Counted from the stretch's first letter, positions 5,992 to 30,031 are shown. The stretch is 64,000 bases of DNA from Bdellovibrionota bacterium (GCA_044347345.1 JBIKUX010000005.1:1-64000), one strand, 5' to 3'. The notes: generated by a model not told the origin, from the sequence alone. Translations and numbers: made by a program.

Positions 5992-6414
5992 ATGTCTCCA
6001 CGCGTTCGAGCAATAGTGGCAACAAGAGTAAACAATTTTGACAGTAAAAAAAATTTAATCCCTCTGGCAAAACAAATAGCCAGCCAAAATCGTGAGCATC
6101 AAATAGGTGGGTTAATTTGTTATGGTAACGGGTCTTTTTTACAACTTATTGAAGGAGAGAGACTAGAGATCAGCCGAGCTCTTATAAGAATTGGCCGTGT
6201 TGCACCAGATACAACAGAGTTTTTGGGTCTTAGAGAAGTCCGTGAGGATGACATTAAATTTGAAGAATGGCTCGAAGAACCTTTCATAATTGAAAATACT
6301 TTCGCCATATTTAGCAGAGAGAGTTTTGCCCCAAATACTTTTTCGTTTTTAGTAGCTGAAGCTCTAATTACATCACTTTTTAAAAATAATCATACAGATA
6401 AGAAATGTATTTAA
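5992..6414 (+). CDS. BLUF-domain protein (degenerate)
   Basis: QNREHQIGGLI...FLQLIEG...FEEW matches the BLUF core (N..ITGxL...FxQxLEG...FxxW). The conserved N-terminal Tyr is absent. Confidence 0.7.
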   Translation: MSPRVRAIVATRVNNFDSKKNLIPLAKQIASQNREHQIGGLICYGNGSFLQLIEGERLEISRALIRIGRVAPDTTEFLGLREVREDDIKFEEWLEEPFIIENTFAIFSRESFAPNTFSFLVAEALITSLFKNNHTDKKCI

Positions 6415-7581: not shown

Positions 7582-8541
7582 TCATTCAATATTACACACC
7601 TGTTCTCGCAACCGTTCAACCTCTAATTTGCCTTGAACAACTAAGTCAGTTACCTGAGAGCGTCGTACTTTTGATCCAATAGTTGTTAGCTCTCTTTGTA
7701 ACTCCTGTAGATAAAATTCTAACTTCTTACCACAAGGAGAAGATTCTACAGCTTTATCTAAATTAACTAGATGACTTTTTATCCGAACTAATTCTTCTTC
7801 AACATCAGCCTTGTCGGCTATTAAGGCTACTTCCTGCCATAATCTATCAGAATCTTTTGCATCTAGTGATCGTACTTGACTAATTAATCGCCCCACTCTT
7901 TCTTGTAACTCCGTGAAGAGTTTTTCAATGTTCTGACTTGTCTCACTACACAAACGTTGATAAATTTGGCGGACTAATTCAATTCTGTTCGATATATCTT
8001 TACGGAGATTGCTTCCTTCATTGTAACGAGAAACTAATAACTCATTAATTGCCTGAGTTACGCTGTAGTCTAATGCTGTTTGCTGAGAATCACTTAAAAT
8101 TTCACTACTATCTTCACGATTCACATTCCAAACTTCGCTTCGTTTTAAAGAAGCTAAAATCAACTTTTGCTGCAAAGCATCAGTTACCGGTAGATGCTTT
8201 CTAGCAAAATCAATCATTTCTCGAAACAATAACTCAGCACTCTCATGATTAAGAGACTGTGCTTCTACTTTTGGTCTTGCGATATAAATTAAAACTTCAA
8301 TTTTTCCTCGAGAGAATGCAGCCGAAATTTTTTGCCTTAAACTAGACTCTATATGCCCCTGTAATCGTGCACCCTTCATGATGATATCAAGAAACCTACT
8401 ATTTACTGAGCGCATTTCAACTCTTACAAGCCCTCCATCAGCAATCTGACAAACAGATTGGCTAAATCCAGTCATACTTTGCAAGACGCCCTTTGAATCT
8501 TGGATTTTATCCTCAGCCACACACATAAAATTTGCGCTCAC
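7582..8541 (-). CDS. yicC: YicC/YloC family endoribonuclease
   Basis: SMTGF, EMRSVNSRFLD, RGKIE, DVEEELVRI, GKKLEFYLQE..RE..TIGSK, REQVCNIE. Confidence 0.93.
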   Translation of the reverse strand: MSANFMCVAEDKIQDSKGVLQSMTGFSQSVCQIADGGLVRVEMRSVNSRFLDIIMKGARLQGHIESSLRQKISAAFSRGKIEVLIYIARPKVEAQSLNHESAELLFREMIDFARKHLPVTDALQQKLILASLKRSEVWNVNREDSSEILSDSQQTALDYSVTQAINELLVSRYNEGSNLRKDISNRIELVRQIYQRLCSETSQNIEKLFTELQERVGRLISQVRSLDAKDSDRLWQEVALIADKADVEEELVRIKSHLVNLDKAVESSPCGKKLEFYLQELQRELTTIGSKVRRSQVTDLVVQGKLEVERLREQVCNIE

Positions 8542-8567
8542 ATGATCATTTCAACTTCGCTGAATTT

Positions 8568-9614
8568 TTACAGCAGATAAAAAGCTTCTACTTCTTGCAT
8601 GAGAAGATCGAGCCTAATTGGAACGGTACCTACCTCTGCTACTACCATACCCGCCGCAAGATTCGCTATGCATCCTGCCATTTCTGCTGATGCACCAGCT
8701 GCAAGGAGCGCTGTAAAGGTAGCAGTAACAGCATCACCGGCACCAGATACATCAAAAACGGATAACGCTTGAGCTGGCAATCTATGCACTTCTTCAGGCT
8801 TATTAGGCTCATTCTGCACAATAACTAGACCATCCTCTCCCAATGTTATAAGAGCCATTTGAAGCCGCCACAAACCAAGCAGCGTGCGAGCAGCACTTAT
8901 AAATTCTTCATTATTACTTAACTTAAGACCAGTAGCTTGCTCTGCTTCATGTCGATTGGGTTTTGCAACCGATATTCCACCATTAAAATATAGGTGAGTA
9001 TTACGAGGATGTGGATCAAGAACGACTGGCTTTTTAGATATACCAGTAATACCTTGTCGCGCTGCCTCTGCTAAGATAGCCATCATAGGATTCGAGACAA
9101 CTCCTTTACCATAATCAGATATAATTATGGCGTCACTTCGCTCCAATTCTCTTTCGAGCAGAGTTGCTAACTCCAGTTGTGAAACTTCAGAAAGTGGCGC
9201 TAAATTCTCTTTATCAATACGCACTATCTGCTGTGATTGAGCTACCACTCGTGTCTTTATTATTGTGGGATGTTGTTCTGATGCAATTACTCCCTGCGTA
9301 GCTACTCCATTCGCATCCAGGTAGGCTCTAATAATTTCACCTTCTGCATCCATTCCAACTACGCCTATCATAGTCACCTTAGCACCCAACTCGCAGAGAT
9401 TTCTCACAACAAGTCCGGCTCCACCAACGCGATCATCGGTATGGGTCATCTGAACGACAGGCACTGGAGCCTCTGGCGAAATACGATTACACCGCCCCCA
9501 AATATACCGATCTAGCATTAAGTCTCCCACTACTAAGATATGCAATTTTGGAATTGCAGCGATTAGCTGACGAGCAAGCTCGGCAGATCCCGCTGAGGGA
9601 ATCTGATTAGGCAT
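8568..9614 (-). CDS. hldA: D-glycero-D-manno-heptose-7-phosphate kinase (stand-alone HldA/RfaE1)
   Basis: VGDLMLDRY..G...RISPEAPVPVV, SDYGKG, KPNRHE, DVSGAGD. No adenylyltransferase domain. Confidence 0.93.
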   Translation of the reverse strand: MPNQIPSAGSAELARQLIAAIPKLHILVVGDLMLDRYIWGRCNRISPEAPVPVVQMTHTDDRVGGAGLVVRNLCELGAKVTMIGVVGMDAEGEIIRAYLDANGVATQGVIASEQHPTIIKTRVVAQSQQIVRIDKENLAPLSEVSQLELATLLERELERSDAIIISDYGKGVVSNPMMAILAEAARQGITGISKKPVVLDPHPRNTHLYFNGGISVAKPNRHEAEQATGLKLSNNEEFISAARTLLGLWRLQMALITLGEDGLVIVQNEPNKPEEVHRLPAQALSVFDVSGAGDAVTATFTALLAAGASAEMAGCIANLAAGMVVAEVGTVPIRLDLLMQEVEAFYLL

Positions 9615-13806: not shown

Positions 13807-16800
13807 ATGTTTCTATTTAGTACCCGTATACGTGCAAAAACAGAACAACCTTCTATTGCAATGTTTCAAATCAGCCCTAACCCGTCAGAAAATCTTACTT
13901 CTCAGAGCACCAATAGTAATAATTCTCACCTACCATTACCAGTCCCTAACAATTTAAATGGTTTAGACCCTGAACTTATAAAATACTATCTAAAAAATTT
14001 TTGGGACTTATTGGATACCTTTATAGTAGATGCCCAAAACAAACCTTTTTACACTTTGGCATTACAGGAAATTCAAACAAACTCATTAGCTCTTGATATT
14101 GTAATTGAATCAGCAGCCATATCAGAGCAGAATAACTATATAAACGAACTTAAAATTTATCTAACCAAGTGTTTTCTTACACAATATTGGCACCCATCCT
14201 TAGTAGAAACATTCTATAGCCTGCTAAATAAACACAACTTAGCAACTTTTTCACTAAGTGATACCTTCCAAGAGGCTCTCAGAGCTACTGCAGATTTTGC
14301 CGCCGTAAACTTTTACTCGTTAGATGATGACGAAATCCAAAAATCGTGTAGCGAAGCTTCTAGGGAACTATTCAGACTAATTGAAAGTTCCGACTCCTCC
14401 ACTCTTGATTTTCAAGGCTTAAAAACATCCATTCTAAATTTCTTAAAAGAATGGATCTCCTCTGGATGCTCTAAAGAAAATTTTTGGACATTAGTCAATG
14501 AACAAAAAATATCCCTCGTATCACCTCTACAGTGTCCTATCAAAACAGCAAGCACTGTCGAAACAGCAAGCACTGTCGTCCACCAAGAAAAACCAACTCA
14601 AGGGGAAATACAAATCCCCCCTAAGAATCTAAGACTAATACAAGGCCTAATTTTATCTTCAATCCTACGGTGGTTAAATAGAGAACAATGTGACCAAAAT
14701 GAAAATATTGGTGTTATCACTTTACCTCATGGAGCCGGCAAGACCGATTCTCTCTTAGTTCTTGGTAACCTATTACTCGCTCAAAACAAAAAAGTTGTAA
14801 TTATCGTAAGCCATGAGGGTCTTTACCCCAAATACCGAGAGCTTTGTCCAAATACAGAATTAACTACGTATAGCAAATTTGACCACCAAGAACTTGACTG
14901 CACAAACACCGTAATTCTAGCTGACGACCCCCCACCAAGATTTGCCGGTCTTGTGTCTGTTAACAGTTCAACTCATGTGGTAATTTTTACCAGTAAACTT
15001 CCTCCGCTCCAATCACCGCAAATCACTAACCTTTCCTCAGAAATAATCCCAGAGGATATTCTAAAAAAACAATTAGAATTAACATCCCCAATTTTTAACT
15101 CACCTAAAATAATTTCTACAGATAATCAATATGAAAACTTGTCTGAGCTAGCTGAAACTGCAGAAGGCAATATCGTCGTTTTTGTTAAAACTCGAAAAGA
15201 AGCTAAAGAATTGTATGAATATTTAAGGGATAAGTTTCATGTTGCCAAATATACCGGCGAAACGCCCCCAGAGCAACGTGCACTAATACTCGATAAGTTT
15301 AAGGATAGTACAAATACACCTCAGATTCTCATTGTCACTACCATCGGACAAACTCATCACCACCAATTTCCAGCTACGACTGTTATTTTTTTTGGGTCTC
15401 ACTGCTCGAACCCAGATATTCAGGAAAAACTATCCACCGTTGCAAATAGTTCGACACCGATAAATGTCATATTCTTAATTAATAAGGGAGAGCCCGAGCC
15501 ACCACTAAACCAAATTAACCGACCACCTACATTACTTAGTTTACCTGCGCAACATCTCTATCCTCACCGACCAAAGAATACCCTACAACTTACAATACCA
15601 AGTAATCGTGACACTACCTTAATCAATGAGAAAATTGGTACTAAATCGAACTCTAAAGTTCTTAATCTACCAGAAAACCTCCTCAAACTATATCGGCTCT
15701 ATTTAGGCAATTTTTTTGAAAAACTAAAATGGCTTGAATTGCTTGTTACTCTCAAAGCAGAAGAATATGTGCTTCCACAGTTTCAAATTAAGGCAAATAT
15801 CGCTGATTTTGTAATCCATAATGAGAATGGAGAACCAATCAAAGTAATAGAAACAAAATGGGGTGGAACGAATCATCAAGGAACACTCGATAATATAACG
15901 GCTCACCTCACTAAAATTATTGAAGGAATAATAGAAAAATTTGGTAACCAAACTTCTACTCCTAAATTTGAACTGCATACTTTTCAAAGTATTTCCGAAA
16001 AAAAAACAAGATTTTTTGGAGTGACTGTTAAATCTATGCATGAACAAAGTCATCCCTTAATAAAAGAACTTTTCATGCTAGTTGCCGCCGAGCTTCGTGA
16101 ATTTGCAAAAACTACTGATCTAGCAAGCCTTAAATTAATAGAAGAGCATATTGAAAAAATTATCTGTGAAATTGTTGGGATAGAATCTTTTAAAGATTTG
16201 ATAAATTTAACGGTAGATAAAAGCAAAAATAGAGATCTTACAGAATTGAGCGAAAAGTTTAACCGCCTAAAAAATTCATTGCAAAAAAATTCATCGGCCG
16301 ATTTTGATTTTACAAGTCCTATTACTCAAGAACCTGGAACAGTAACACAAGGATCTCGATTTGAAGTTCTTGAGAAATGTTTGCGAAATTCTTTACAACA
16401 TACTCTTAATCAATTGGTGTGGCCACCAAACAGTAATAGCCCTACAAAACGACAATTTAATGAGTCGCATGTAACCACAGAAATCCGTAGAAAAATACGC
16501 AGTAAGAGTTGGTTCCCCTCATCGAATACAGTGAATTATGTCACAATCAGCATTAACCAAGCTATCATATCAATCAATGCGTATTTATCTGATCCGAATA
16601 CATCGCAAACAAACCAAAAAAAATTATACTTAAAGATATCAGAGGCATTAAGCGAGCTCTCTATGATATTAAGCAAACCATTTCCGAGCCTAAGCAATGA
16701 GTTAACTAACGTTAAAACTCTAAGCGGTGCAATCAAAACTCTAAATGGCATCTCTCATAATCTCTATATATTAAAGTTTGTGATGATGACAGGTGAGACT

Positions 16801-17613
16801 TCTAATAAACGCGAAATGCATAAGAAGTTATTCTGGCTCAAGAATTGTTCAGATTTGACTGAATCTGTTGTTACGCTACTACAAGCAATAACTAAATTAA
16901 AAAATAATGAAAGGATTACTGACAATACTAGTAACCAAATGAAACAACCCCCCACTATTACTTGGAGCGATTTAACAGATTTTTTTGATAAAACTTCATT
17001 CCCAACTGAGGGGTTTCTTCAAAATGGTCAAAGCATCATGCAAGAGATGCTTGCTTCCCAAAAATTATTACTACGATTATCTGATGAAACGAAAGAAAAG
17101 CCTTGGTGGGCTAATTGGGGTAGTAGAATTAAAAACCAGATTGAATATTTATCTCCAGACCTACAAGAAGTTTTTCCCCAAATAACATTAGACAACTTAA
17201 ACAGTGCGGCTCATGTTTTAATAAGCAAAAAAGAGACCTTGGTTCTAATAAATAAGTTAGTCTCTCTACTGAGTAGTGAAAAATCTGAACCAGCAGACTT
17301 AAAAACCGAATTTGAGGAGCTCTATGCTTATGTTATTTCTTTGGACCCTGAGCAGACAGATCAGACAGAGCAGACACAAACTTCTGTGACCAAGGCTCAC
17401 ATCCTAAAGTTATTTAACTCCTTTAATAATAAACTAAACAAAACTTTTAATTTTACCAGAGGTCGAGACAATCTGGAGAATAATTTAAAACGTATGTGTT
17501 ACTATTATATAATTTATGAACTTGAAAAGTTCCAAACTGAAATTTCACCTATAACCGGCTCACCTCTTACACAACTACTTATTCAGTTACGATTGAATAA
17601 ATACGGAAGCTAA
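13807..17613 (+). CDS. Large orphan: degenerate SF2 helicase core plus PD-(D/E)xK-like nuclease motif and helical C-terminus
   Basis: Walker A LPHGAGKT (about 14720-14745); Walker B-like VILADD; helicase-C IVVFVKTRKEA...YTGETPPEQR...ILIVTT; GNFFE...IADFV...VIETK (about 15700-15860). May start at ATG 13861. Confidence 0.65.
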   Translation: MFLFSTRIRAKTEQPSIAMFQISPNPSENLTSQSTNSNNSHLPLPVPNNLNGLDPELIKYYLKNFWDLLDTFIVDAQNKPFYTLALQEIQTNSLALDIVIESAAISEQNNYINELKIYLTKCFLTQYWHPSLVETFYSLLNKHNLATFSLSDTFQEALRATADFAAVNFYSLDDDEIQKSCSEASRELFRLIESSDSSTLDFQGLKTSILNFLKEWISSGCSKENFWTLVNEQKISLVSPLQCPIKTASTVETASTVVHQEKPTQGEIQIPPKNLRLIQGLILSSILRWLNREQCDQNENIGVITLPHGAGKTDSLLVLGNLLLAQNKKVVIIVSHEGLYPKYRELCPNTELTTYSKFDHQELDCTNTVILADDPPPRFAGLVSVNSSTHVVIFTSKLPPLQSPQITNLSSEIIPEDILKKQLELTSPIFNSPKIISTDNQYENLSELAETAEGNIVVFVKTRKEAKELYEYLRDKFHVAKYTGETPPEQRALILDKFKDSTNTPQILIVTTIGQTHHHQFPATTVIFFGSHCSNPDIQEKLSTVANSSTPINVIFLINKGEPEPPLNQINRPPTLLSLPAQHLYPHRPKNTLQLTIPSNRDTTLINEKIGTKSNSKVLNLPENLLKLYRLYLGNFFEKLKWLELLVTLKAEEYVLPQFQIKANIADFVIHNENGEPIKVIETKWGGTNHQGTLDNITAHLTKIIEGIIEKFGNQTSTPKFELHTFQSISEKKTRFFGVTVKSMHEQSHPLIKELFMLVAAELREFAKTTDLASLKLIEEHIEKIICEIVGIESFKDLINLTVDKSKNRDLTELSEKFNRLKNSLQKNSSADFDFTSPITQEPGTVTQGSRFEVLEKCLRNSLQHTLNQLVWPPNSNSPTKRQFNESHVTTEIRRKIRSKSWFPSSNTVNYVTISINQAIISINAYLSDPNTSQTNQKKLYLKISEALSELSMILSKPFPSLSNELTNVKTLSGAIKTLNGISHNLYILKFVMMTGETSNKREMHKKLFWLKNCSDLTESVVTLLQAITKLKNNERITDNTSNQMKQPPTITWSDLTDFFDKTSFPTEGFLQNGQSIMQEMLASQKLLLRLSDETKEKPWWANWGSRIKNQIEYLSPDLQEVFPQITLDNLNSAAHVLISKKETLVLINKLVSLLSSEKSEPADLKTEFEELYAYVISLDPEQTDQTEQTQTSVTKAHILKLFNSFNNKLNKTFNFTRGRDNLENNLKRMCYYYIIYELEKFQTEISPITGSPLTQLLIQLRLNKYGS
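14543..14578. repeat. 18-bp in-frame tandem duplication (TASTVE/TASTVV)
   Basis: AAACAGCAAGCACTGTCG x2. Confidence 0.9.
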
Positions 17614-17876
17614 TTAACTTTATCTATCTCATTTAAAATATCAATGACTGCCTCATACAGAGTGATTGGGATATTACTTTCCACGTTCAAATTAGTAAGA
17701 GTAGGACGAAGTTCTGGGCGATAGACGATGGGTATATTATACTTTTTAGCAGTCGCAATAATAATAGAACCTATTTCATGACTTCCCTTAGCCGACACAA
17801 ACGGAGCGTCATCTACATCTTCATTAAAAGCAAGAGCTAATACTAACTTATCTGAAAGGCCTTCACCGTTTTTCAT
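17610..17876 (-). CDS. SctU/FlhB C-terminal (post-cleavage, FlhX-like) domain
   Basis: LALAF...APFVSAKG....IIATAKKYNIPIV...L...IP..LYEAV..IL is the FlhB/SctU CC subdomain. Confidence 0.88.
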   Translation of the reverse strand: MKNGEGLSDKLVLALAFNEDVDDAPFVSAKGSHEIGSIIIATAKKYNIPIVYRPELRPTLTNLNVESNIPITLYEAVIDILNEIDKVN

Positions 17877-17885
17877 TTCGAGAAA

Positions 17886-20800
17886 CTATCCTTTTACTAA
17901 AGCTTGGTCGCTTGGTTTATTTTTATTATCTAAGCCAAATTCATTAACTCTTAAGGCCATAACACGCCGAGTTACTGCATGAATCTTCCAAACATCAAAT
18001 GGCTTTCCTATGACCTCGAATCTCTCTCGATTAAGAGCTCTTATACTCTGCCAACGACCTGCCTCGTCAGAAACAAGACAAATATGCAGTGAAGGTGGAG
18101 TCCCAAGAAGATCATTAATATCAAAATGAGGATTATCAGCATAGGCGATGATAATCGCAGTAGAATTTAATGTAGCCGATACTTCAGAAATAGAACGGCC
18201 AAAAGCGACTACTACTCCCTGAGCTTCAAACCGAGTTGCTACCCTGTGCTCCTCCTCTTCTGGAAATCCTATAAGCACAACCTCAGCAACTATTCCTGAG
18301 GCAAGACGTTGAAGAGATTTTTCCTTTGAATTGATACTGCCTATTACAGCACGCGGAAGAAATACGCTAAACATTGAGCCTCGACCCGACTCGGTTGTAA
18401 CCGTTAAGTGACCTTGATGATGCCTAAGCACTGAATAAGCTGTAGACAATCCAAGACCTGCACCAGTTATGCCAATGCCGAGCCTAGAATCAACATTTTT
18501 AGTCGTAAAAAACGGCTCAAAACACCGAGATTCTTCCTCTGATGTCATTCCCTTTCCATTATCGGCTATATCTATTCGAATATAATCACCAGGAATGAGT
18601 AATCCATCAACATCACTTGGAGCTACAGCTACCTCCCCAACTGATATTACTATTCTTGGATTGTAGTGCTTATCATTTATTAAACGACCCTCAATAGCTT
18701 CCTTCGCGTTAATGAGTACGGTAGAGAAAACCTGTTGTAGGAGTTCATGATCACCGTATACTGGAAGCTCTTCATCAGGAACATTTATTTCAACTAACGT
18801 AGTAGCCCCAACAATTGTACGGTAGTAACTTGTTGATGTCTTTATTAACTCACCAATATTAACAATAGTTCTGACCTCCGGTTTGTGCGGGGAAAAGTGT
18901 AGAAGATGAGCAATTAAATTAGTGCCTCTCTCAGCAGCCGCCAGTATAGACGAGGATGCTTTGTGAATAGCACTATCTTTTGTTGCTTGCATTTCTATTA
19001 AAGACGCTTGTCCCATTACAGCCTGAAGGAGATTGTTAAAATTATGCGCTACCCCAGATGCTAAAACTCCAGCGGCTCGCATCTTCTCTGAAATAGCCAT
19101 CTTTTCCTCGAATCGTCTTGCAAGCATTACTGTTGCTAATTCTGTGGCCATACTGGAGAGCAATGGGAGTTTTTTTTGTGAAAAAAAAGCTCCTGCATGA
19201 ATTGGTTCTACTATCAATACTCCAATTGTTTGAGAAAGAGCTGTCAACGGAACAATTACCACTGCCCCTATTTCAAGAGTTCGAGCAACCCGAGATAAAG
19301 AGATACAATCTGAAGAGGAAGCTTTATCAATAATTGTGGGATTACCTGATTCCAGTACTTGTTGTAGCTGCCGCTCAGTGGAGCGCATCTCTATCCTCAG
19401 AGTCTCAAGCGATTTACGCATCCCCGGACCGACTCCAGCCTGTCCAACTAGATGGCTACCGGCTTCATTGATAACACCAAGCCACATTCTTTTACAGGCT
19501 AGTTCTTCTTGAATTATCGGAAAGGCTGCAAGTCCTATATCTCTCGGACTTAAGTGTTTTGAAACTTCATGGCTTAAACGGTAAAGCGCGGCATAAGAAT
19601 CGGCTTGTCGCTTTTGATTTAAATAAAACTCTGCACGACGTCCAGCAACACCTATTTGACTAGCGGCCGCCAACGCAAAATCAAAATCACCTTGAGTAAA
19701 TTTAAAGGCATCTGGACTATACACGGCTACTGCCCCGAGTGGCATATCTTCGTCTAATAAAGGAACAACAACAGCCGACCGAAGACCTTGCTCAGCTAGC
19801 AAAAAACCGGAATATCGCGGGTCTTTTGGCAGATCATCAATCAATACTCCTTTTCCACTCTCAATTATTGATCTGGTAAGAGACCCAGCTTGAAGGCGCG
19901 ACTCTAACATCTCGACTGTTTTAATTGGAAGACCGTGAGAAGCTATCACCTCAAGTTGTCCACTTGCTCGGTCGAAGAAAGTCACATATCCACACTGAGC
20001 TCCTGTTGCCTCAATCAAAGCATGCAATCCTCTCTCTGTTACTAACCGTGGCTCACTACCGAATTCAAGCGCTCGAGTCATCCGATATAAAGCATTAAGG
20101 CGCCTCTTATTTAACATTCGCTCGTGATCAATACGCTTGGTATCAGATACATCCGTAACTATAACTTCCCAACCTAAAAAAACCGTATCAGTCTCAGGAT
20201 TAAAATCGTCTTTTACTGACCCACTAATATGAGGAGCATCACCGTAGTGAGGGACTACCATTAAAGACAGCCACCTCATCCCACGCCCATTTGGAAGTTC
20301 TACTTGAATATCATCTTGCAATGGAATTCTAGCTAATAAATACCGCCGAAATTTGCGCATGATCTTAGCGCGATGAACACGAGGAATAAGTCGAGCAATA
20401 TCTTCATTACCTAAAAGTTTGGTTAAAATTAACGCATACGGTGGAATTCCTACAATCCGGCTCACATCTCCAGATACTGAGAGAATAGTGAGCTCAGAGT
20501 CGGTGCGTAATACAACAGCTCCAGCATAATCAATAAGCCTTTTGTACTGAACTTTTACCTCAAGTAATTTACTCTGAAAACTGCGGCGACCACTTGGTAA
20601 AATTACACAAGCAAACCGTTGACTACTTTGTTCACCCTCTCCTAGTCTAAAAATATGTACTGTATGATCACCTACGGCGGCTAACGGACCCTCTCCTCTC
20701 CAATCACATCGCTGATAGACGCTACCCTGATCTATCAAATGAGCCAAAGTTGTAAGTATGGCTTGAGCTTGAGTTCGAGATAAATATTCTTCACTAAGCT

Positions 20801-21635
20801 CCTTAAGAGAGCGTCCACAGACTGATTGAACAGGCCCAAAAAATCTTTCAAACTGCGCATTTCCCTCGAGTAAAATCCCATCTTTAGAAAGAAGAAAAGA
20901 CGGGAAAGGTACTTCGTCCAATATACGGTTCCCACTATTTGCCTCTGTTACCGGCCGTTGTATAACTTCATCAAGTTCTTTGGATACTTGACGACGCCGT
21001 AGCTTTCTTCCTCGTCCAACTACTTCTCTAAACCTTTCCTTTTGTGTGGAATCCCGTTTAGCACTATTTTTTAGCTTATGTACAAACTTACCTATCGCAG
21101 AAACACAGGTAAAAAGTTCACCTACGATATCTCCTCGCCAAACAAAGCTAGGGCTACGATTTATAAGCTGAACATACCCTAAAAGAGCACCATTATTCTC
21201 AATTGGTAGAATAGCCAAACTAGACAAACCACGCTCTACCATAGCAAGATGAAGGCTTGTAGGAGCTCCATCTATACTTGGTACAAGCAAAGGTAACGAT
21301 ATGATTGCTCCGGACAAAGCTACAACAGAATTATTACTGAAGTTCAGTGGTATTAAATCAGCGGTCAAATGAGCTCGATCATAAAGCTCATTCTCCTCTC
21401 CTAGACTGGCAAAAAAAGCGACGTGCCTGATTTCTGTTGAGGTATTTGCCGAACCAACCACTACCTCTACTGCATCTACTCCGATTCCACCAGAGATAGA
21501 TCTAGCAGCGCGAGATACCAAATCATTGAGGTCAGAGGACTGCTCAATCTCACTGAGTAAAGAGTATATAAGGTCAGTTTGTTCCTTGACCATCTGCTTA
21601 GCATTACCCCTCAGAAAAAAAAACAATGAAATCAA
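17886..21635 (-). CDS. Cytoplasmic hybrid sensor histidine kinase (GAF-PAS-PAS-GAF-GAF-HisKA-HATPase-pseudo-receiver)
   Basis: H-box GVAHNFNNLL, N-box VLINAKEA, DNGKGM, FEPFFTTK, GLGLS, C-terminal KPF; several GAF-like S-x-x-x-VPL...GAV segments; no clear TM helix. May start at ATG 21593. Confidence 0.9.
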   Translation of the reverse strand: MISLFFFLRGNAKQMVKEQTDLIYSLLSEIEQSSDLNDLVSRAARSISGGIGVDAVEVVVGSANTSTEIRHVAFFASLGEENELYDRAHLTADLIPLNFSNNSVVALSGAIISLPLLVPSIDGAPTSLHLAMVERGLSSLAILPIENNGALLGYVQLINRSPSFVWRGDIVGELFTCVSAIGKFVHKLKNSAKRDSTQKERFREVVGRGRKLRRRQVSKELDEVIQRPVTEANSGNRILDEVPFPSFLLSKDGILLEGNAQFERFFGPVQSVCGRSLKELSEEYLSRTQAQAILTTLAHLIDQGSVYQRCDWRGEGPLAAVGDHTVHIFRLGEGEQSSQRFACVILPSGRRSFQSKLLEVKVQYKRLIDYAGAVVLRTDSELTILSVSGDVSRIVGIPPYALILTKLLGNEDIARLIPRVHRAKIMRKFRRYLLARIPLQDDIQVELPNGRGMRWLSLMVVPHYGDAPHISGSVKDDFNPETDTVFLGWEVIVTDVSDTKRIDHERMLNKRRLNALYRMTRALEFGSEPRLVTERGLHALIEATGAQCGYVTFFDRASGQLEVIASHGLPIKTVEMLESRLQAGSLTRSIIESGKGVLIDDLPKDPRYSGFLLAEQGLRSAVVVPLLDEDMPLGAVAVYSPDAFKFTQGDFDFALAAASQIGVAGRRAEFYLNQKRQADSYAALYRLSHEVSKHLSPRDIGLAAFPIIQEELACKRMWLGVINEAGSHLVGQAGVGPGMRKSLETLRIEMRSTERQLQQVLESGNPTIIDKASSSDCISLSRVARTLEIGAVVIVPLTALSQTIGVLIVEPIHAGAFFSQKKLPLLSSMATELATVMLARRFEEKMAISEKMRAAGVLASGVAHNFNNLLQAVMGQASLIEMQATKDSAIHKASSSILAAAERGTNLIAHLLHFSPHKPEVRTIVNIGELIKTSTSYYRTIVGATTLVEINVPDEELPVYGDHELLQQVFSTVLINAKEAIEGRLINDKHYNPRIVISVGEVAVAPSDVDGLLIPGDYIRIDIADNGKGMTSEEESRCFEPFFTTKNVDSRLGIGITGAGLGLSTAYSVLRHHQGHLTVTTESGRGSMFSVFLPRAVIGSINSKEKSLQRLASGIVAEVVLIGFPEEEEHRVATRFEAQGVVVAFGRSISEVSATLNSTAIIIAYADNPHFDINDLLGTPPSLHICLVSDEAGRWQSIRALNRERFEVIGKPFDVWKIHAVTRRVMALRVNEFGLDNKNKPSDQALVKG

Positions 21636-22390
21636 CTAATAATGATTACTCTCGAATTTTTTACTCTCTCTTCGATAGTTTTTGACAAAAAGGCATGATA
21701 TTCAAGCTCACGCCGAGCCTTTAACGCTGGATCTCCATTATTGTCACGATACTCCTTTCGTAACTCCTCTGTTGTCATTCCGTATTTTCTTTGGAATAAA
21801 AAATTACTCACAAGAAGATCTGCCAGAGCTATTATAAGAAGAATAACAAAACACACTGTAGATCCTAACCAAACAACTACCCAAGGTTTGTAGAACCATC
21901 CGTTAGATACGTCCTTAACTTTACTCCATAACACCAAATAGAGCACAGTAGAAAAAACAATGACAAGAAAGAAATTTACAAGACCAGCAAAGACTTGCCG
22001 AAAAAATTGAGTGATCCAAGAAGAGGGATTCAATCTTTCAAGCTGAAAGGAAATAGTTTTGACCGTGATATGAATACCTGTTTGATATAAACTAAGTAGT
22101 ATTGCACTTATTCCTCCAAAAACAAGCGGAACTACCCCCAGCATAAACCAGATAACTAACAGTGGTTTAAGTGCCATTTTGATGCAAATGGACGTATTTT
22201 TCTCCATAGCAAGACACTGCAAACCTGGCTTGATGGATACCTTGGCACAATAAACCCAAATAATAAAAGTAACAGACACAACTACTATTCCGGCACATAA
22301 CGCACCGATTGCTCGAGGGCTGTTATTTACTATTCCTTTATTTCTCAACTGAGTGAGTTTATAAGTTGAAGGAGGAAAATTTTTATTCAC
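21632..22390 (-). CDS. sctU: SctU/FlhB N-terminal part (TM domain plus CN linker), ending at the autocleavage position
   Basis: PSTYKLTQLRNKG, four TM segments, LERLNP, MTTEELRKEYRDNNGDPALKARR; ends KNSRVIIIS-stop with no NPTH. Confidence 0.88.
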   Translation of the reverse strand: MNKNFPPSTYKLTQLRNKGIVNNSPRAIGALCAGIVVVSVTFIIWVYCAKVSIKPGLQCLAMEKNTSICIKMALKPLLVIWFMLGVVPLVFGGISAILLSLYQTGIHITVKTISFQLERLNPSSWITQFFRQVFAGLVNFFLVIVFSTVLYLVLWSKVKDVSNGWFYKPWVVVWLGSTVCFVILLIIALADLLVSNFLFQRKYGMTTEELRKEYRDNNGDPALKARRELEYHAFLSKTIEERVKNSRVIIIS

Positions 22391-22405
22391 TTCTTATCTT
22401 ACAAT

Positions 22406-23194
22406 TTATCTAGTAGGAAGAGATAACTTTGCATTCCCAAGCATGGTTAATAGATTGGTATCATAGGTAGCTGCTATTATTTTTTCAAAAGCTACTATTT
22501 TCTCAGAGAACAATCGTTGACAGATGCAAACTAGCAAAAGAGTGATTATGCTAGCCCGAAATATATTAAACTCTGCATTAGCCGATATTCCTGGAACTAG
22601 TTTAGAAATTATTATAGCAATACCGTCAGCCAAAAGACTCAGAAGGATTAATGGAATTAAAAAAAGAATTAGTTGAGAGATTGTTGAAGTAAGAAGAGAA
22701 ATGACTACTGAGCTTAACATCTCAAATGAGAAAACTGAACTGCCAACTCTAACAAATTTAAAACTAGTTATATAATTCTCTGCGAGTCTATGAATAGCTC
22801 CAGATAATACCAAACAAGCAAGAGTTAATTTTTCTGTATATATCGCCAGTGGAGAGCTCTCTTTATTTTGAGAGGAGAATGAATAGGGATTAAGAATAGC
22901 ACCTAAAGATGTACCGCGAAAACTATCGACTAATGCTCCGAGGACTCTACCACTTCTCAGAAAGAGAGCGATAGGACATCCAATAAGACATCCAAAAATA
23001 AATTCTTGCACATAAAGAAAAATCGACCAAATAGAGAATAATTCGCTTACTCTATTGGATGTAAAAGAATCTAAATTACCCATAGCCCAAACAGAAAAAA
23101 CCAATGCAACTGTTGCCTTTAGCGGTCCCTTAATAAAAGGGAATAAGACTAAAACCCCAAGGGCGCGCATGAACTCATACAGAGGAAATATCAT
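22406..23194 (-). CDS. sctT: T3SS export gate SctT (FliR family)
   Basis: Polytopic membrane protein; QEFIFGCLIG, GALVDSFRG, LLAD...SKLVP; lies between sctS and sctU. Confidence 0.85.
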   Translation of the reverse strand: MIFPLYEFMRALGVLVLFPFIKGPLKATVALVFSVWAMGNLDSFTSNRVSELFSIWSIFLYVQEFIFGCLIGCPIALFLRSGRVLGALVDSFRGTSLGAILNPYSFSSQNKESSPLAIYTEKLTLACLVLSGAIHRLAENYITSFKFVRVGSSVFSFEMLSSVVISLLTSTISQLILFLIPLILLSLLADGIAIIISKLVPGISANAEFNIFRASIITLLLVCICQRLFSEKIVAFEKIIAATYDTNLLTMLGNAKLSLPTR

Positions 23195-23218
23195 AACGAA
23201 GAAATTAAAGTATTTTAA

Positions 23219-23482
23219 TTATAATTCCGTTCTTCCAATAGAAGCTCCTAATTCTATTGCGTTAACTGTGAGTTGTTCAAATTTTCGCCATAACGTCGCA
23301 CTTCCAGCTAGCAACACGATAAACAGCACCACAAGTTTAATGACAAATTGAGAGGTTTGTTCTTGAACGTGAGTAGCAGCTTGAATGGCACTGACAAACA
23401 GTGACACTACACTCGTGATAATAAGAGGAACAACTCCAGCTAAAAAAAATAACCAAAGTCCATTAATTAAAAGTAGTCGCAT
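23219..23482 (-). CDS. sctS: T3SS export gate SctS (FliQ family)
   Basis: 87 aa, two TM helices, VSAIQAATHVQEQTSQFVIKL. Confidence 0.92.
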   Translation of the reverse strand: MRLLLINGLWLFFLAGVVPLIITSVVSLFVSAIQAATHVQEQTSQFVIKLVVLFIVLLAGSATLWRKFEQLTVNAIELGASIGRTEL

Positions 23483-23489
23483 AGTAGAA

Positions 23490-24146
23490 CTATTGATAAG
23501 ATAAAATCAGACTTTCAGAGAGAAGTATCCACCCGTTTGTTACTGCAAAAAGAAGTAACTTAAGAGGCAGTGCTACTAAAGTAGGGCTCACCATCATCAT
23601 TCCAAGCCCCGTCAAAAGTTGAGCTACGACTAAATCAATAATAACGAAGGGTGTAAGCAAAGCTACACCCATAAGTAACGCTTCTTTTAGTTCACTTAAA
23701 AGAAATGCAGGAATCACCTCAAACCATTTGAGAATAGATTCCTCTGGGATATCGGAATCAATGATATTCTTTTCGGAGGAATTATTTGCACGCATTCGAA
23801 TAATGAAATCTCTTTCAGACCTGCCGGTGTGACGATCCAAAAATGCAAGCCATGGAGCGAAAATATCCTTTATTTCTTGACTAGAGACCGATCCCACTCC
23901 CTTTCCAACCAGAGGTTTTATCTTAGGTAAGACCTCTTCAAAAATAGGACCCATTATAAAGCCAGTGAGAGCTAGTGCGAGTACAACTTCTGCTAGAATG
24001 CCAGGAGACTGCTGTAAACCTAAGGCATTTTTTAAGACCTGAAGCACTATAGATATTTTAAGGTAAGATGATGCTACACCAAAAATTATCGGAAACACTG
24101 ACAACAAAAACGCTGCAGAAAGTAAGGTTGTAGGCTGAAAATTCAC
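23490..24146 (-). CDS. sctR: T3SS export gate SctR (FliP family)
   Basis: SYLKISIVL..LKNALGLQQSP, PAFLLSELK, PFVIIDLVVA..L.GLGMMMVSP..VALPLKLLLF...GW. No FliP-type signal peptide. Confidence 0.95.
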   Translation of the reverse strand: MNFQPTTLLSAAFLLSVFPIIFGVASSYLKISIVLQVLKNALGLQQSPGILAEVVLALALTGFIMGPIFEEVLPKIKPLVGKGVGSVSSQEIKDIFAPWLAFLDRHTGRSERDFIIRMRANNSSEKNIIDSDIPEESILKWFEVIPAFLLSELKEALLMGVALLTPFVIIDLVVAQLLTGLGMMMVSPTLVALPLKLLLFAVTNGWILLSESLILSYQ

Positions 24147-25030
24147 TGATCCTCTACTACTTTAAATGAAACCATTTTTAATGAATGATGCCTACAAATT
24201 GCAGCAAACCTTTGCACTATTGTATCTGAACTGTTTTTAAGAGATTTGCTCGAAGAACGAAGTATCAATGAGACACCACCGGAAAATGGCATCCCTAAAG
24301 TTATAATTACTTCTTTGCCACTTGGTAAAGTGTAACGGAGAGATACTGTCTGTAACAGCTTGCTAGCTTTTTGAATCAATTCATTAAGCTTTTGAACGAT
24401 AAAAATCATATCCCTTGAGGTCGAGGGATTCTCTGATTTTAAGAAGGTATAAAAATTTAAATTATGAAAATTAGCCTGATTTTTCTCTTCGATAATTTCT
24501 CTTTTCTTGTATAACAACTGTTGTGATTGTTTAATGCTGCTTTGGAGATGCTCGCTTCTTTTACTGCTTAAAAGAATTTGATTCTGTTGAAGTTTTAATT
24601 CTTGGTTCAGTTCGTTTTCTTTATTATTTATGAAACCAACTTTATCCGCTAAGTTGTTAAGAATCGTCAGATTGCGAGAAATAAAGTTGGGTGATTTACG
24701 CGCTAAATCAATGACTAAATCTCTGTGTTCGAGATTTTGAGTGTGTTCGAGATTTTGAGTGTGTTTTTTTCCAATTAAGATCGGTTTGATAACATCATCG
24801 TAAATTTGTTGCTGCGAAAGCCTTATTTTCTCACGATCATAAGTCAGATTTTCAATTTTTTTTCTTAACCTAAACAAGTGTTGTTCTTGTTGTTTTTTAA
24901 TAACAGAGTTTTGACGAAATCGTAAAGAACGTATAAAAATTTTGCGGGCTATTGATTCTTGTGATGTAGTCATAGGTATATTTTCAGTAAAATTTGCAGT
25001 GTTAGCAGTAAATGTCGTCATTGCTAACAT
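24143..25030 (-). CDS. Probable SctO (FliJ-like coiled coil) fused to an SctP/FliK-like C-terminal T3S4 domain
   Basis: About 150 aa of Q/K/E/L-rich coiled coil, then a beta-beta-beta-alpha-beta-like tail (VSLRYTLPSGKEVIITL...VSLILRS...LKMVSFKV); occupies the sctO/sctP position upstream of sctR. Confidence 0.5.
   Translation of the reverse strand: MLAMTTFTANTANFTENIPMTTSQESIARKIFIRSLRFRQNSVIKKQQEQHLFRLRKKIENLTYDREKIRLSQQQIYDDVIKPILIGKKHTQNLEHTQNLEHRDLVIDLARKSPNFISRNLTILNNLADKVGFINNKENELNQELKLQQNQILLSSKRSEHLQSSIKQSQQLLYKKREIIEEKNQANFHNLNFYTFLKSENPSTSRDMIFIVQKLNELIQKASKLLQTVSLRYTLPSGKEVIITLGMPFSGGVSLILRSSSKSLKNSSDTIVQRFAAICRHHSLKMVSFKVVEDQ
24724..24765. repeat. 18-bp in-frame tandem duplication (HTQNLE x2)
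   Basis: TGTGTTCGAGATTTTGAG x2 plus a partial copy. Confidence 0.9.
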
Positions 25031-25359
25031 CCTTGATGTAATCTACGAACCAGCCCGGAAACTGAATCAGATATTTTTGAAAATAATTCAACTTGCACCT
25101 GCATTTCTCCTACTCGCATTTGCAGTGAGAGTAGTTCTTGAGGGGAGAAGTTTTTTCCTCGTTTTACTTGCTCTCCCAACTTTGATAATTGGGCTTGGTT
25201 TTTTAACATAGTCTTAAATATCGAGTTTAAGTCTTGCTTAAATGTTTTTAAATTGGATGATGGTGTGGCTCTGGGTACTGTCGAAACCGATGGAAGGCTC
25301 GATAGTTGAAACGATTTTTCTGCTACCGAATTAAGTGATTGCAAAGGGATTACAGACAT
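25024..25359 (-). CDS. sctI: T3SS inner-rod protein (SctI; EscI/YscI/HrpB family)
   Basis: C-terminal FSPQELLSLQMRVGEMQVQVELFSKISDSVSGLVRRL; S/P/T-rich N-terminus; GAGG RBS. Confidence 0.75.
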   Translation of the reverse strand: MSVIPLQSLNSVAEKSFQLSSLPSVSTVPRATPSSNLKTFKQDLNSIFKTMLKNQAQLSKLGEQVKRGKNFSPQELLSLQMRVGEMQVQVELFSKISDSVSGLVRRLHQGC

Positions 25360-29095: not shown

Positions 29096-30031
29096 TTAAA
29101 CAACGCACCAGATTAAAGGTGGTCTATACGTACCCGTCGGAAAAAAAACATTCTCTTTCCCATCCTTTATACTTAGATACGCAAATGTAAACTGCTCTCT
29201 TATAGTTCTGTACTGCCACTTGAATTCTTTTTTTGTTTTCGCACAACTAGTAAGTATTAAAGGTTGCCTCTCGTACTTTTTGTTAGTTTTTGTAGACTTT
29301 GGCTTGTCTCCCGATTTTATGGAAAGTAATGCTTTGATTCCAGCGAATCCTTTTCCTTCTAAATAACGAGTTTTAATTATCTGCTGTCGTCTTTCCTCGA
29401 GTTTTTTTATGAGGATGTTGACATACTCTGCTTGACTTAAACTCTCGTAGCCAGGAAGTCTTGTATATTCTAAAGTATAAGTTTTTTCAAAATCCTTTGG
29501 CCTAAGATGTTTGTTAAAACGCTTTTTATCGCGATAAGAACGCCAATCAATTAGCTTATACTTTCGCGCAAAGGCTGACATAGCGTCAAAGAAAAAATTA
29601 TATCCAAAATTTTTATAGTCAGATATTCTTTCGACTAAACCACTTGAAACCGGATTGAGTGCTGCATAAAAAAAATAATTTTCGCGATCCTCATCCCTCA
29701 CAATTGCCTGACAGCGATATCTAGTCTGCCATAGGGAGCCAGCGGGAACACCTCTTACGTGGAATCGGGTTAATTTTGAGATGATTGAATTAAAATCTCT
29801 CATGAATGCCGCTCTATTTCTCCTGGGAAAATCGGCACCCAAATGATAGTGGTTCCCAAGAAACACAAAAAAATAAATTTTAACTCCATACTTTTTTTGA
29901 TATTTAGCTAAAAAAGCAAGGACTAGTTTCTTGATCTTATTATTTTTGTGAAACCATAAGCGAGAATCTACCGTTCTGGTTGTTATAAACGACGTATGCT
30001 CAGTAAATTCAATCCGAAGTGCTTGAGCCAT
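29096..30031 (-). mobile_element. RAYT-like (Y1/IS200-family) HUH tyrosine transposase
   Basis: FITTRT, FVFLGNHYHL (HUH), LWQTRY, YAALNPVSSGLV (catalytic Tyr), long basic C-terminus ending FPTGTY. Confidence 0.82.

Follow-up and report, generated by a model that had tools for sequence, protein, structure and literature searches.

SctU, the switch protein of type III secretion, encoded as two genes divided at its autocleavage position in an uncultured Bdellovibrionota-labelled lineage

What becomes of a self-cleaving protein when its gene is already divided at the cleavage position? The question is raised by a 64,000-nucleotide (nt) stretch of DNA from a Bdellovibrionota bacterium (GCA_044347345.1 JBIKUX010000005.1:1-64000; the whole stretch is called the window here), in which SctU, the switch and export-gate protein in secretion systems of type III (T3SS), is encoded by two genes on the same strand. 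By alignment, the first (sctU N-part) ends where SctU and its flagellar counterpart FlhB normally cleave themselves, at the motif NPTH; the second (sctU C-part) encodes the remaining CC subdomain, and the gene of a large histidine kinase lies between the two. Autocleavage of SctU/FlhB has been studied for two decades, and opinions still differ on what counts in substrate switching: the cleavage event, the flexibility that results from it or the PTH loop. Here, we describe the position of the break, its spread and conservation among relatives and the linkage of both halves to the kinase, and we argue that the arrangement probably goes back to an ancient gene fission, by which SctU is made directly in its mature two-chain form.

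The break and the autocleavage position

Both SctU pieces score above the cut-off (24.4 bits) of the Pfam family PF01312 (FlhB/HrpN/YscU/SpaS; Bac_export_2; profile length 335) and thus belong to the FlhB/SctU family by sequence (Table 1). Jointly they cover the family model except for six positions, and these six hold NPTH. An earlier note, made from the sequence of the window, had held that the N-part stops where autocleavage normally occurs and that the CC subdomain missing from it is encoded on the same strand by the small downstream gene; the profile alignment places the breakpoint there and identifies the second gene accordingly, and the positions that the note had given for both open reading frames (ORFs) and for the stop codon stand unchanged. 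The N-part ends in ...RVKNSRVIIIS directly before its TGA, and ...SRVIIIS aligns to ...AHVIITN of the full-length flagellar FlhB encoded in the same genome. In an alignment of 21 N-parts with this FlhB, every N-part ends 1-16 residues past a strand ('..SKVIVV') that matches the 'AHVIIT' preceding NPTH. The C-parts begin a few residues ahead of the strand that follows NPTH ('Y..AVGLxY' versus 'HYAVALKY' in FlhB) and have no conserved PTH.

Comparison with solved structures agrees with this placement. Positions 1-256 of a profile built from the 21 N-parts align to residues 1-257 of SpaS, and the last aligned pair is the residue before PTH. With the same profile, the match to the N-terminal fragments of EscU and FlhB after cleavage (chains of 52-54 amino acids, aa) runs to no more than two residues from their ends. 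The C-terminal chains of cleaved FlhB, EscU and YscU (83-87 aa) align to the C-part profile from residue 3 on (best E 9.2e-23). On the strength of these alignments to cleaved chains, the gene boundary coincides with the autocleavage boundary to within about two residues, and the 88-aa product of the second gene has the size of a natural CC chain.

The stop codon that closes the N-part is genuine. The stretch was detected in 23 lake or freshwater sequencing runs, and Logan contigs from two runs of other studies, X7 (record 26, 21111-22353) and X12 (record 16, 21087-21905), bridge the TGA with 0 differing letters; among the contigs of run X10 none bridged it. The TGA is therefore no assembly or sequencing artefact. 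The 54 non-redundant N-part genes end in TAA (25), TGA (15) or TAG (14), and because all three stop codons are used, stop recoding is not involved. PTH was found at or beyond the N-part end in 0 of these 54 genes; the canonical form, one polypeptide with an NPTH autocleavage motif, is replaced by two genes. Reading through the TGA of the window gives I-I-S-stop-F-H-C-F-F-F-stop, with the second in-frame stop 7 codons on. The S-stop-F-H that the earlier note had pointed out, as a possible vestige of NPTH or a coincidence, is thus present, but in view of the 54 genes we reject it as a remnant of the motif and regard it as coincidence. As read by eye, 5 of the 54 N-parts have Asn directly after the last strand, and one ends exactly in ...VVVN; the old motif may have left a faint trace here.

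Spread, selection and the kinase between the halves

The comparison covered a phylum-rank group of 124 genomes, each of the same order or the same class, in which the window's genome is the sole member of its family. In public records these relatives are metagenome-assembled genomes labelled Bdellovibrionota, uncultured Bdellovibrionales, Oligoflexia or Deltaproteobacteria. Of the 124 genomes, 121 are matched by the N-part profile. Among the 150 matches listed, most of the high-scoring ones fall within ORFs of about 250-300 aa whose ends lie at profile position 254-258 of 259, and a second, lower-scoring class in ORFs of about 360-450 aa is flagellar FlhB. Within the order, the N-part was matched in 39 of 41 genomes and the C-part in 40 of 41. 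Of 20 loci from the order, 17 show the colinear arrangement sctR-sctS-sctT-N-part-kinase-C-part; in the remaining three, which belong to two families, the N-part and C-part genes adjoin with an overlap of 4-13 nt and without the kinase. In the other orders of the class, N-part, kinase and C-part are colinear in 15 of 20 loci; three of the other five are cut by a contig end or have no detectable C-part, one has the N-part alone and one, in a 1.2-Mb, 80%-complete genome, shows a full-length FlhB alone. The gene order that the earlier note had described in the window is thus kept across orders. Over 57 non-redundant loci, the kinase orthologue stands between the halves, with all three genes in order, in 41, the C-part is on the strand and contig of the N-part in 46, and the gene spacing is mostly -41 to +118 nt. 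The split is a trait of the whole phylum-rank lineage, and the kinase is part of the conserved module.

Scans of metagenome contigs returned no close DNA relative of the window's kinase or N-part, a protein search with the window's N-part returned one close relative (75% identity, also 252 aa), and a search with the N-part profile returned few family members, unnamed or called 'hypothetical protein'. As no close DNA relative of the window's genes was found, the ratio of nonsynonymous to synonymous substitution rates (dN/dS, Nei-Gojobori) was taken from closer pairs among other family members. For the N-part it is 0.15-0.27 and for the C-part 0.07-0.19; the kinase, at 0.03-0.04, is under the strongest constraint in the module. 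Both SctU halves and the kinase are under purifying selection, and the relaxed selection (dN/dS near 1) that the earlier note had considered is not what these genes display. Some of the best-conserved positions of the N-part lie in its terminal strand, where V248 and V251 are nearly invariant; such conservation at the very end of a protein fits a buried, paired strand and would otherwise be hard to explain.

The kinase has the hallmarks of a histidine kinase, namely an ATPase domain, a phospho-acceptor His box and sensor domains. Pfam matches are GAF_2 (88.7 bits), GAF (77.9 bits) and HATPase_c (58.6 bits, cut-off 26.4), with sub-threshold matches to HisKA (21.8 bits, cut-off 26.9) and PAS (about 20 bits). 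The H-box 'AHNFNN', which includes H864, is invariant in 16 orthologues. Several GAF/PAS sensor domains were found and, by Pfam, no membrane segment. The C-terminal ~150 aa have no Pfam match; in the alignment they carry a receiver-like 'LDxD ... KPxGVW' pattern, of which only G51 and P123 are invariant. The longest ORF uses a TTG start that overlaps the N-part stop; the ATG at 21593, preceded by GAGGGG, is the likelier start.

A profile of the 16 kinase orthologues was run on one genome per species (185,579 species) and returned 80 loci, with matches of at least 479 bits on re-scoring taken as strong. In 24 of the 25 strong matches the N-part lies just upstream, and the 25th locus is cut at the kinase; the C-part lies downstream in 21, two of these having it 2.5-3.4 kilobases (kb) further on. 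The latter two (L088, L089) are closely related genomes in which extra DNA is inserted between kinase and C-part. A further fragment (L137) holds a kinase piece and the C-part. The 54 weak matches cover the kinase core only and have neither SctU half nearby. This kinase family occurs only between the two SctU halves. At one locus of another order (L176), in which no C-part was found, a second N-part-like ORF (8015-8719, 234 aa, E 4.8e-12) occupies the expected C-part slot 3' of the kinase.

Two loci have a short kinase of 551-579 aa. In the genomes with adjacent halves, no full kinase orthologue was found elsewhere; the best matches, of 113-215 bits, cover the kinase core only. We built a gene tree from the concatenated SctR, N-part, C-part and SctT proteins, which has some weak inner nodes and is not a species tree. 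The three kinase-less loci fall in two places, one of them sister to a kinase-bearing clade (support 0.988) and the other grouped with the window and another kinase-bearing locus (support 0.836). The 12 loci of the other orders group together as one clade with support 1.0, and each of them has the kinase. Because the kinase-less loci sit in two positions beside kinase-bearing lineages, the simplest history would be an ancestral arrangement of N-part, kinase and C-part from which the kinase was lost twice while the halves stayed separate. An FHA/YscD-like gene of the SctD type follows the C-part in 24 relatives' loci, and the kinase therefore lies within the structural operon. Its linkage and constraint suggest that the kinase is most likely a dedicated regulator of this secretion system.

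Gene fission and its alternatives

We consider an ancient gene fission of SctU to be the probable origin of this arrangement. The SctU of a T3SS of non-flagellar type would have been split at the NPTH cut site, between N and P. The first gene would then encode the membrane part and the cytoplasmic linker, ending in the hydrophobic beta-strand that normally precedes NPTH, and the second the CC subdomain of roughly 85 aa. The two polypeptides would associate after translation by beta-sheet complementation, as the chains of autocleaved SctU do. With a mature two-chain protein formed in this way, the NPTH chemistry would have become dispensable and then been lost, and because the NPTH/PTH motif is gone, the split SctU should undergo no autoproteolysis. 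The gene of the soluble GAF/PAS kinase would already have stood between the halves in the common ancestor of the lineage and would be co-expressed in the same operon. The data show the split with its position, age and conservation, the purifying selection and the exclusive linkage of the kinase; we infer that the halves physically reassemble, that the product is functionally equivalent to cleaved SctU and that the kinase has a regulatory role. Autocleavage is a rapid maturation step right after folding and not the regulated event, a view of which Ferris et al. (in 2005) and Monjaras Feria et al. (in 2015) are reportedly the sources. The earlier note had proposed a switch that would be constitutive or governed by how much free CC subunit there is. 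If cleavage follows folding at once, the split most simply gives the normal mature form and not a permanently switched one. The loss of PTH suggests that there is no contact of the ruler type, as would suit a system that has no needle to measure.

Likeness to canonical SctU/FlhB (YscU, EscU, SpaS, HrcU, FlhB), which undergoes cleavage (PMC3040844), extends to the Pfam family, the place after sctR-sctS-sctT and the chain boundaries of the cleaved protein; the differences are the two genes, the absence of NPTH/PTH and the kinase gene between the halves. A precedent from experiment is an engineered split of HrcU of Xanthomonas, in which the C-terminal domain supplied in trans restores function to a strain without codons 265-357, and secretion partly (PMC3040844). 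It shows that a T3SS can work with the CC subdomain as a separate polypeptide cut at the same site. However, that split is a laboratory construct with partial secretion that keeps the PTH loop, whereas the split described here is natural, ancient and motif-less; in HrcU, cleavage is required for late substrates, and the NPTH motif is a binding site for HpaC, the switch protein, and for HrpB2, an early substrate (PMC3040844). Among other T3SS components, the secretin (as rhcC1/rhcC2, separated by another gene) and HrcQ (as hrcQA/hrcQB) are naturally encoded in split form (PMC3574062). They resemble the present case as lineage-conserved fissions of a core T3SS part, with an unrelated gene separating the secretin halves, but concern other proteins, and their break is not at a self-processing site. 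No published description of a split SctU was found in the literature, supplementary tables being outside the coverage, and the arrangement is apparently undescribed.

Several points weigh against gene fission into a functional two-chain SctU. Binding between N-part and C-part is presumed, as is equivalence to the cleaved protein, and a SctU without the NPTH/PTH loop may not 'switch' at all; in canonical systems, that loop itself binds switch partners (PMC3040844). The C-part lies 2.5-3.4 kb beyond the kinase in two loci, and four strong-kinase loci show no C-part, two of them cut by a contig end. The dS values behind the selection estimates are 0.6-2.3, near or past saturation for several pairs, and saturated pairs gave no estimate. 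A metatranscriptome run (X22) covers a small share of the stretch, with short contigs that reach the C-part, some of the kinase and the N-part's 3' end; it is a single RNA library that may contain DNA, and these contigs show presence and are no proof of transcription. The organism is uncultured, and all genomes are metagenome bins.

One alternative extends the fission reading and strikes us as possible, though distinctly less probable: docking of free CC onto the gate would be the regulated step, with a kinase that senses a signal or the secretion state and either controls free CC or is controlled by it, such that substrate switching or gate activation would depend on a signal and not on a length ruler. 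The strong constraint on the kinase (the lowest dN/dS of the module), its occurrence only between the halves at a place kept across orders, its several GAF/PAS sensors with no predicted membrane part, and the loss in all 54 N-parts of the PTH loop that canonical switch partners bind all speak for such a role. Yet three loci of two families do without the kinase and keep their halves adjacent and intact, two loci carry only the short kinase of 551-579 aa, and secretion operons often embed regulators that bind no structural part. Taken further, N-part, kinase and C-part might form a three-part signal-gated switch, in which an ancestral insertion of the kinase at a break-tolerant site coupled CC docking to sensing and replaced the ruler and the PTH loop, and whose gate may work with a Tad/Kil-like pilus, because a sctV sits in the tad operon across the order; we propose this tentatively and think it rather unlikely.

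That the 88-aa protein is instead a stand-alone FlhB-CC of the FlhX/YlqH type, serving the flagellar gate (FlhB, C63) and leaving the SctU N-part to work or fail without a CC, we consider quite improbable. Such proteins usually accompany a full-length FlhB that keeps its own CC. HP1575/FlhX of H. pylori is an example of the type (Wand et al. 2006, as cited in PMC3040844). The genome does have an intact flagellar FlhB, the C-part resembles these proteins in consisting of the CC fold alone at ~85-95 aa, its best NCBIfam match is TIGR00789 'FlhB-like' (54.6 bits), and about 10 of 40 relatives have an extra stand-alone CC-like ORF. However, that score is far under the cut-off of 117.35, the flagellar FlhB comes with a CC of its own and keeps NPTH intact, and every N-part is without a CC and hence is the protein that needs one. 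The C-part is the syntenic partner of this CC-less protein, on the same strand and contig in 46 of 57 loci and overlapping its stop by 4-13 nt in three; it travels with the N-part and not with the flagellar flhB, contrary to the separate flagellar allegiance that the earlier note had named as a ground for abandoning its reading. Decay of a T3SS, an assembly chimera or a sequencing error, with the fragments as pseudogene pieces, would be compatible with the scores of the R, S, T and U proteins below NCBIfam cut-offs, with the scatter of the system over several contigs and with the lack of a needle protein match. It is contradicted by the independent contigs that bridge the stop without a difference, the 121 of 124 genomes matched by the N-part profile, dN/dS well below 1 and the three types of stop codon with no recoded stop, and we hold it to be scarcely credible. 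Translational recoding, by which readthrough or frameshift would join the pieces and make the split only apparent, might find a foothold in the stop/start overlaps of 1-4 nt at several junctions, but short overlaps are typical of translational coupling. The spacing from N-part to kinase (-41 to +117 nt in most loci) and the frame vary, TAA, TGA and TAG are all used and a second in-frame stop follows the TGA of the window, and we give this explanation almost no weight.

Gene fission, the reading we prefer, makes the lineage a very old natural experiment, in which two SctU chains are made from separate genes, the NPTH chemistry has been dropped and both pieces are under selection. Covalent synthesis followed by self-cleavage would accordingly not be essential to the FlhB/SctU family, and the lineage offers ready-made two-piece SctU variants for structural and mechanistic work. 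With its exclusive and apparently ancestral place between the two, the highly conserved multi-sensor kinase suggests that the T3SS gate has a regulatory link that is so far undescribed.

The secretion system and its genomic surroundings

The two sctU genes belong to a tightly packed minus-strand operon (17610-25359) in the order SctI-like ORF, 295-aa ORF, sctR, sctS, sctT, sctU N-part, kinase and sctU C-part (Table 1). The N-part is contiguous with sctR-sctS-sctT in the window and in most relatives' loci. ORF starts were set at the first ATG, GTG or TTG after a stop, and gene overlaps are therefore upper bounds.

Table 1. Features of the sctU operon in the window
Feature	Position	Strand	Evidence
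111-aa ORF at the head of the cluster (SctI-like)	25024..25359	-	PF17001 (inner-rod SctI), weak: E 2e-4, 22.2 bits, below cut-off 32.4
295-aa ORF directly 5' of sctR, overlapping the sctR start	24143..25030	-	no family
sctR (FliP family export-gate subunit)	23490..24146	-	PF00813, 157.1 bits
sctS	23219..23482	-	PF01313, 46.9 bits
sctT	22406..23194	-	PF01311, 51.9 bits
sctU N-part, 252 aa: transmembrane domain and linker (CN)	21632..22390	-	PF01312, profile 2-256 of 335, 103.3 bits
TGA stop closing the sctU N-part at the autocleavage position	21632..21634	-	sequence; bridged by independent contigs
Multi-sensor histidine kinase, 1249 aa, between the SctU halves	17886..21635	-	Pfam GAF_2, GAF, HATPase_c
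sctU C-part (CC subdomain), own gene, 88 aa	17610..17876	-	PF01312, profile 263-333, 45.3 bits

Homologues of the 111-aa SctI-like ORF occur in 19 loci, and one member of a separate cluster of small ORFs from 14 loci matches PF17001 (E 8e-5). The 295-aa ORF matches none of the Pfam families at E <= 0.01, and relaxing the limit to E <= 5 brought up nothing meaningful.

By their NCBIfam scores, all of them below cut-offs, the R, S, T, U and V proteins appear nearer to non-flagellar Sct models than to flagellar ones. SctR scores 172 and 157.5 bits on SctR models versus 133.1 on FliP, SctS 45.8 bits on TIGR01403 versus 35.9 on FliQ, and the SctU N-part 92.4 bits on the SctU model versus 87.8 on the flagellar one; SctT matches TIGR01401 alone (60.8 bits), and for each of the two SctV copies the hrcV model gives a better score than FlhA. 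The cut-off of the SctU equivalog TIGR01404 (358 bits) lies far above the scores of the N-part (92.4) and C-part (42.4), as is expected for partial, divergent sequences. An intact, well-scoring flagellar set, fliP-fliQ-fliR-flhB-flhA, lies elsewhere in the genome (contig C63); it includes the full-length FlhB for which the earlier note had proposed a search, with an intact 'VIITNPTHYAVAL'. Other Sct-type genes are scattered over contigs: C45 has a sctV after Tad pilus genes, C7 has sctJ and, with a TPR protein, a second sctV, and C3 has one non-flagellar-type ATPase. The genome also has two secretins. No match to a needle-protein family was found in the genome. A divergent, apparently needle-less T3SS seems to be universal in this uncultured, Bdellovibrionota-labelled freshwater lineage.

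The sctV of C45 (L161:1090-8529, minus strand) encodes a 740-aa protein of non-flagellar type and stands directly after tadB-tadC, with a CpaF-like ATPase, an Flp pilin and a TadZ-like gene; a Ser/Thr kinase, an FHA protein and a PP2C phosphatase adjoin. The order tadB-tadC-sctV is colinear in 28 of 29 relatives' loci (L196-L224), and the 29th ends at a contig end. This recalls the 'needleless' T3SS* of Myxococcus, which works with the Kil (Tad-like) pilus (PMC12075869, PMC12428579) and which the present system resembles as a divergent T3SS, apparently of non-flagellar type, with no needle gene detected. The likeness is one of gene content, and the two differ in that no split SctU was seen in the sampled Myxococcota. 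In a sample of 151 Myxococcota genomes, PF01312 matches were obtained in 81, and all but four of the 92 matches listed span the whole model; two of the four are fragments at contig ends, the other two are ORFs that match positions 3-241 and 3-103, and neither a stand-alone C-part nor an N/C pair was found among the matches listed. A 2025 review (PMC12428579) confines the co-occurrence of Kil (Tad-like) and T3SS* to the Cystobacterineae, and the sctV inside a Tad pilus operon bears on this view of a pairing restricted to one myxobacterial suborder.

A second, very divergent gate cluster lies on C55 (L163:3747-10467, minus strand), with FHA/YscD-like and YscJ/FliF-family genes (sctD-sctJ), FliMN_C, a 189-aa FliP-like and an 83-aa FliQ-like gene; no SctT or SctU was detectable in it. 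Three small ORFs without a family follow the FliQ-like gene, and a flagellin gene is close by. We rejected these small ORFs as a hidden second SctU (hhalign probability <1% against both the N-part and C-part profiles). The further stand-alone CC-like ORFs of relatives (89-133 aa) lie on other contigs, e.g., G005:C51:3280-3507, G002:C140:3434-3655 and G036:C5:47932-48141, and no such ORF was found in the window's genome.

Convergent to the C-part, the plus strand of the window (13807-17613) encodes a 1268-aa protein with low-complexity Asn/Ser/Gln stretches, whose sole domain is Helicase_C, plus a weak ResIII match; in the 24 relatives' loci with the SctD-like FHA gene, that operon-strand gene takes this slot. 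Elsewhere in the window are an ORF (29096-30031, minus strand) with a sub-threshold match to an IS200-like transposase (E 1.7e-4) and a gene for a small BLUF-domain protein, a blue-light sensor (5992-6414, plus strand, E 1.2e-8).

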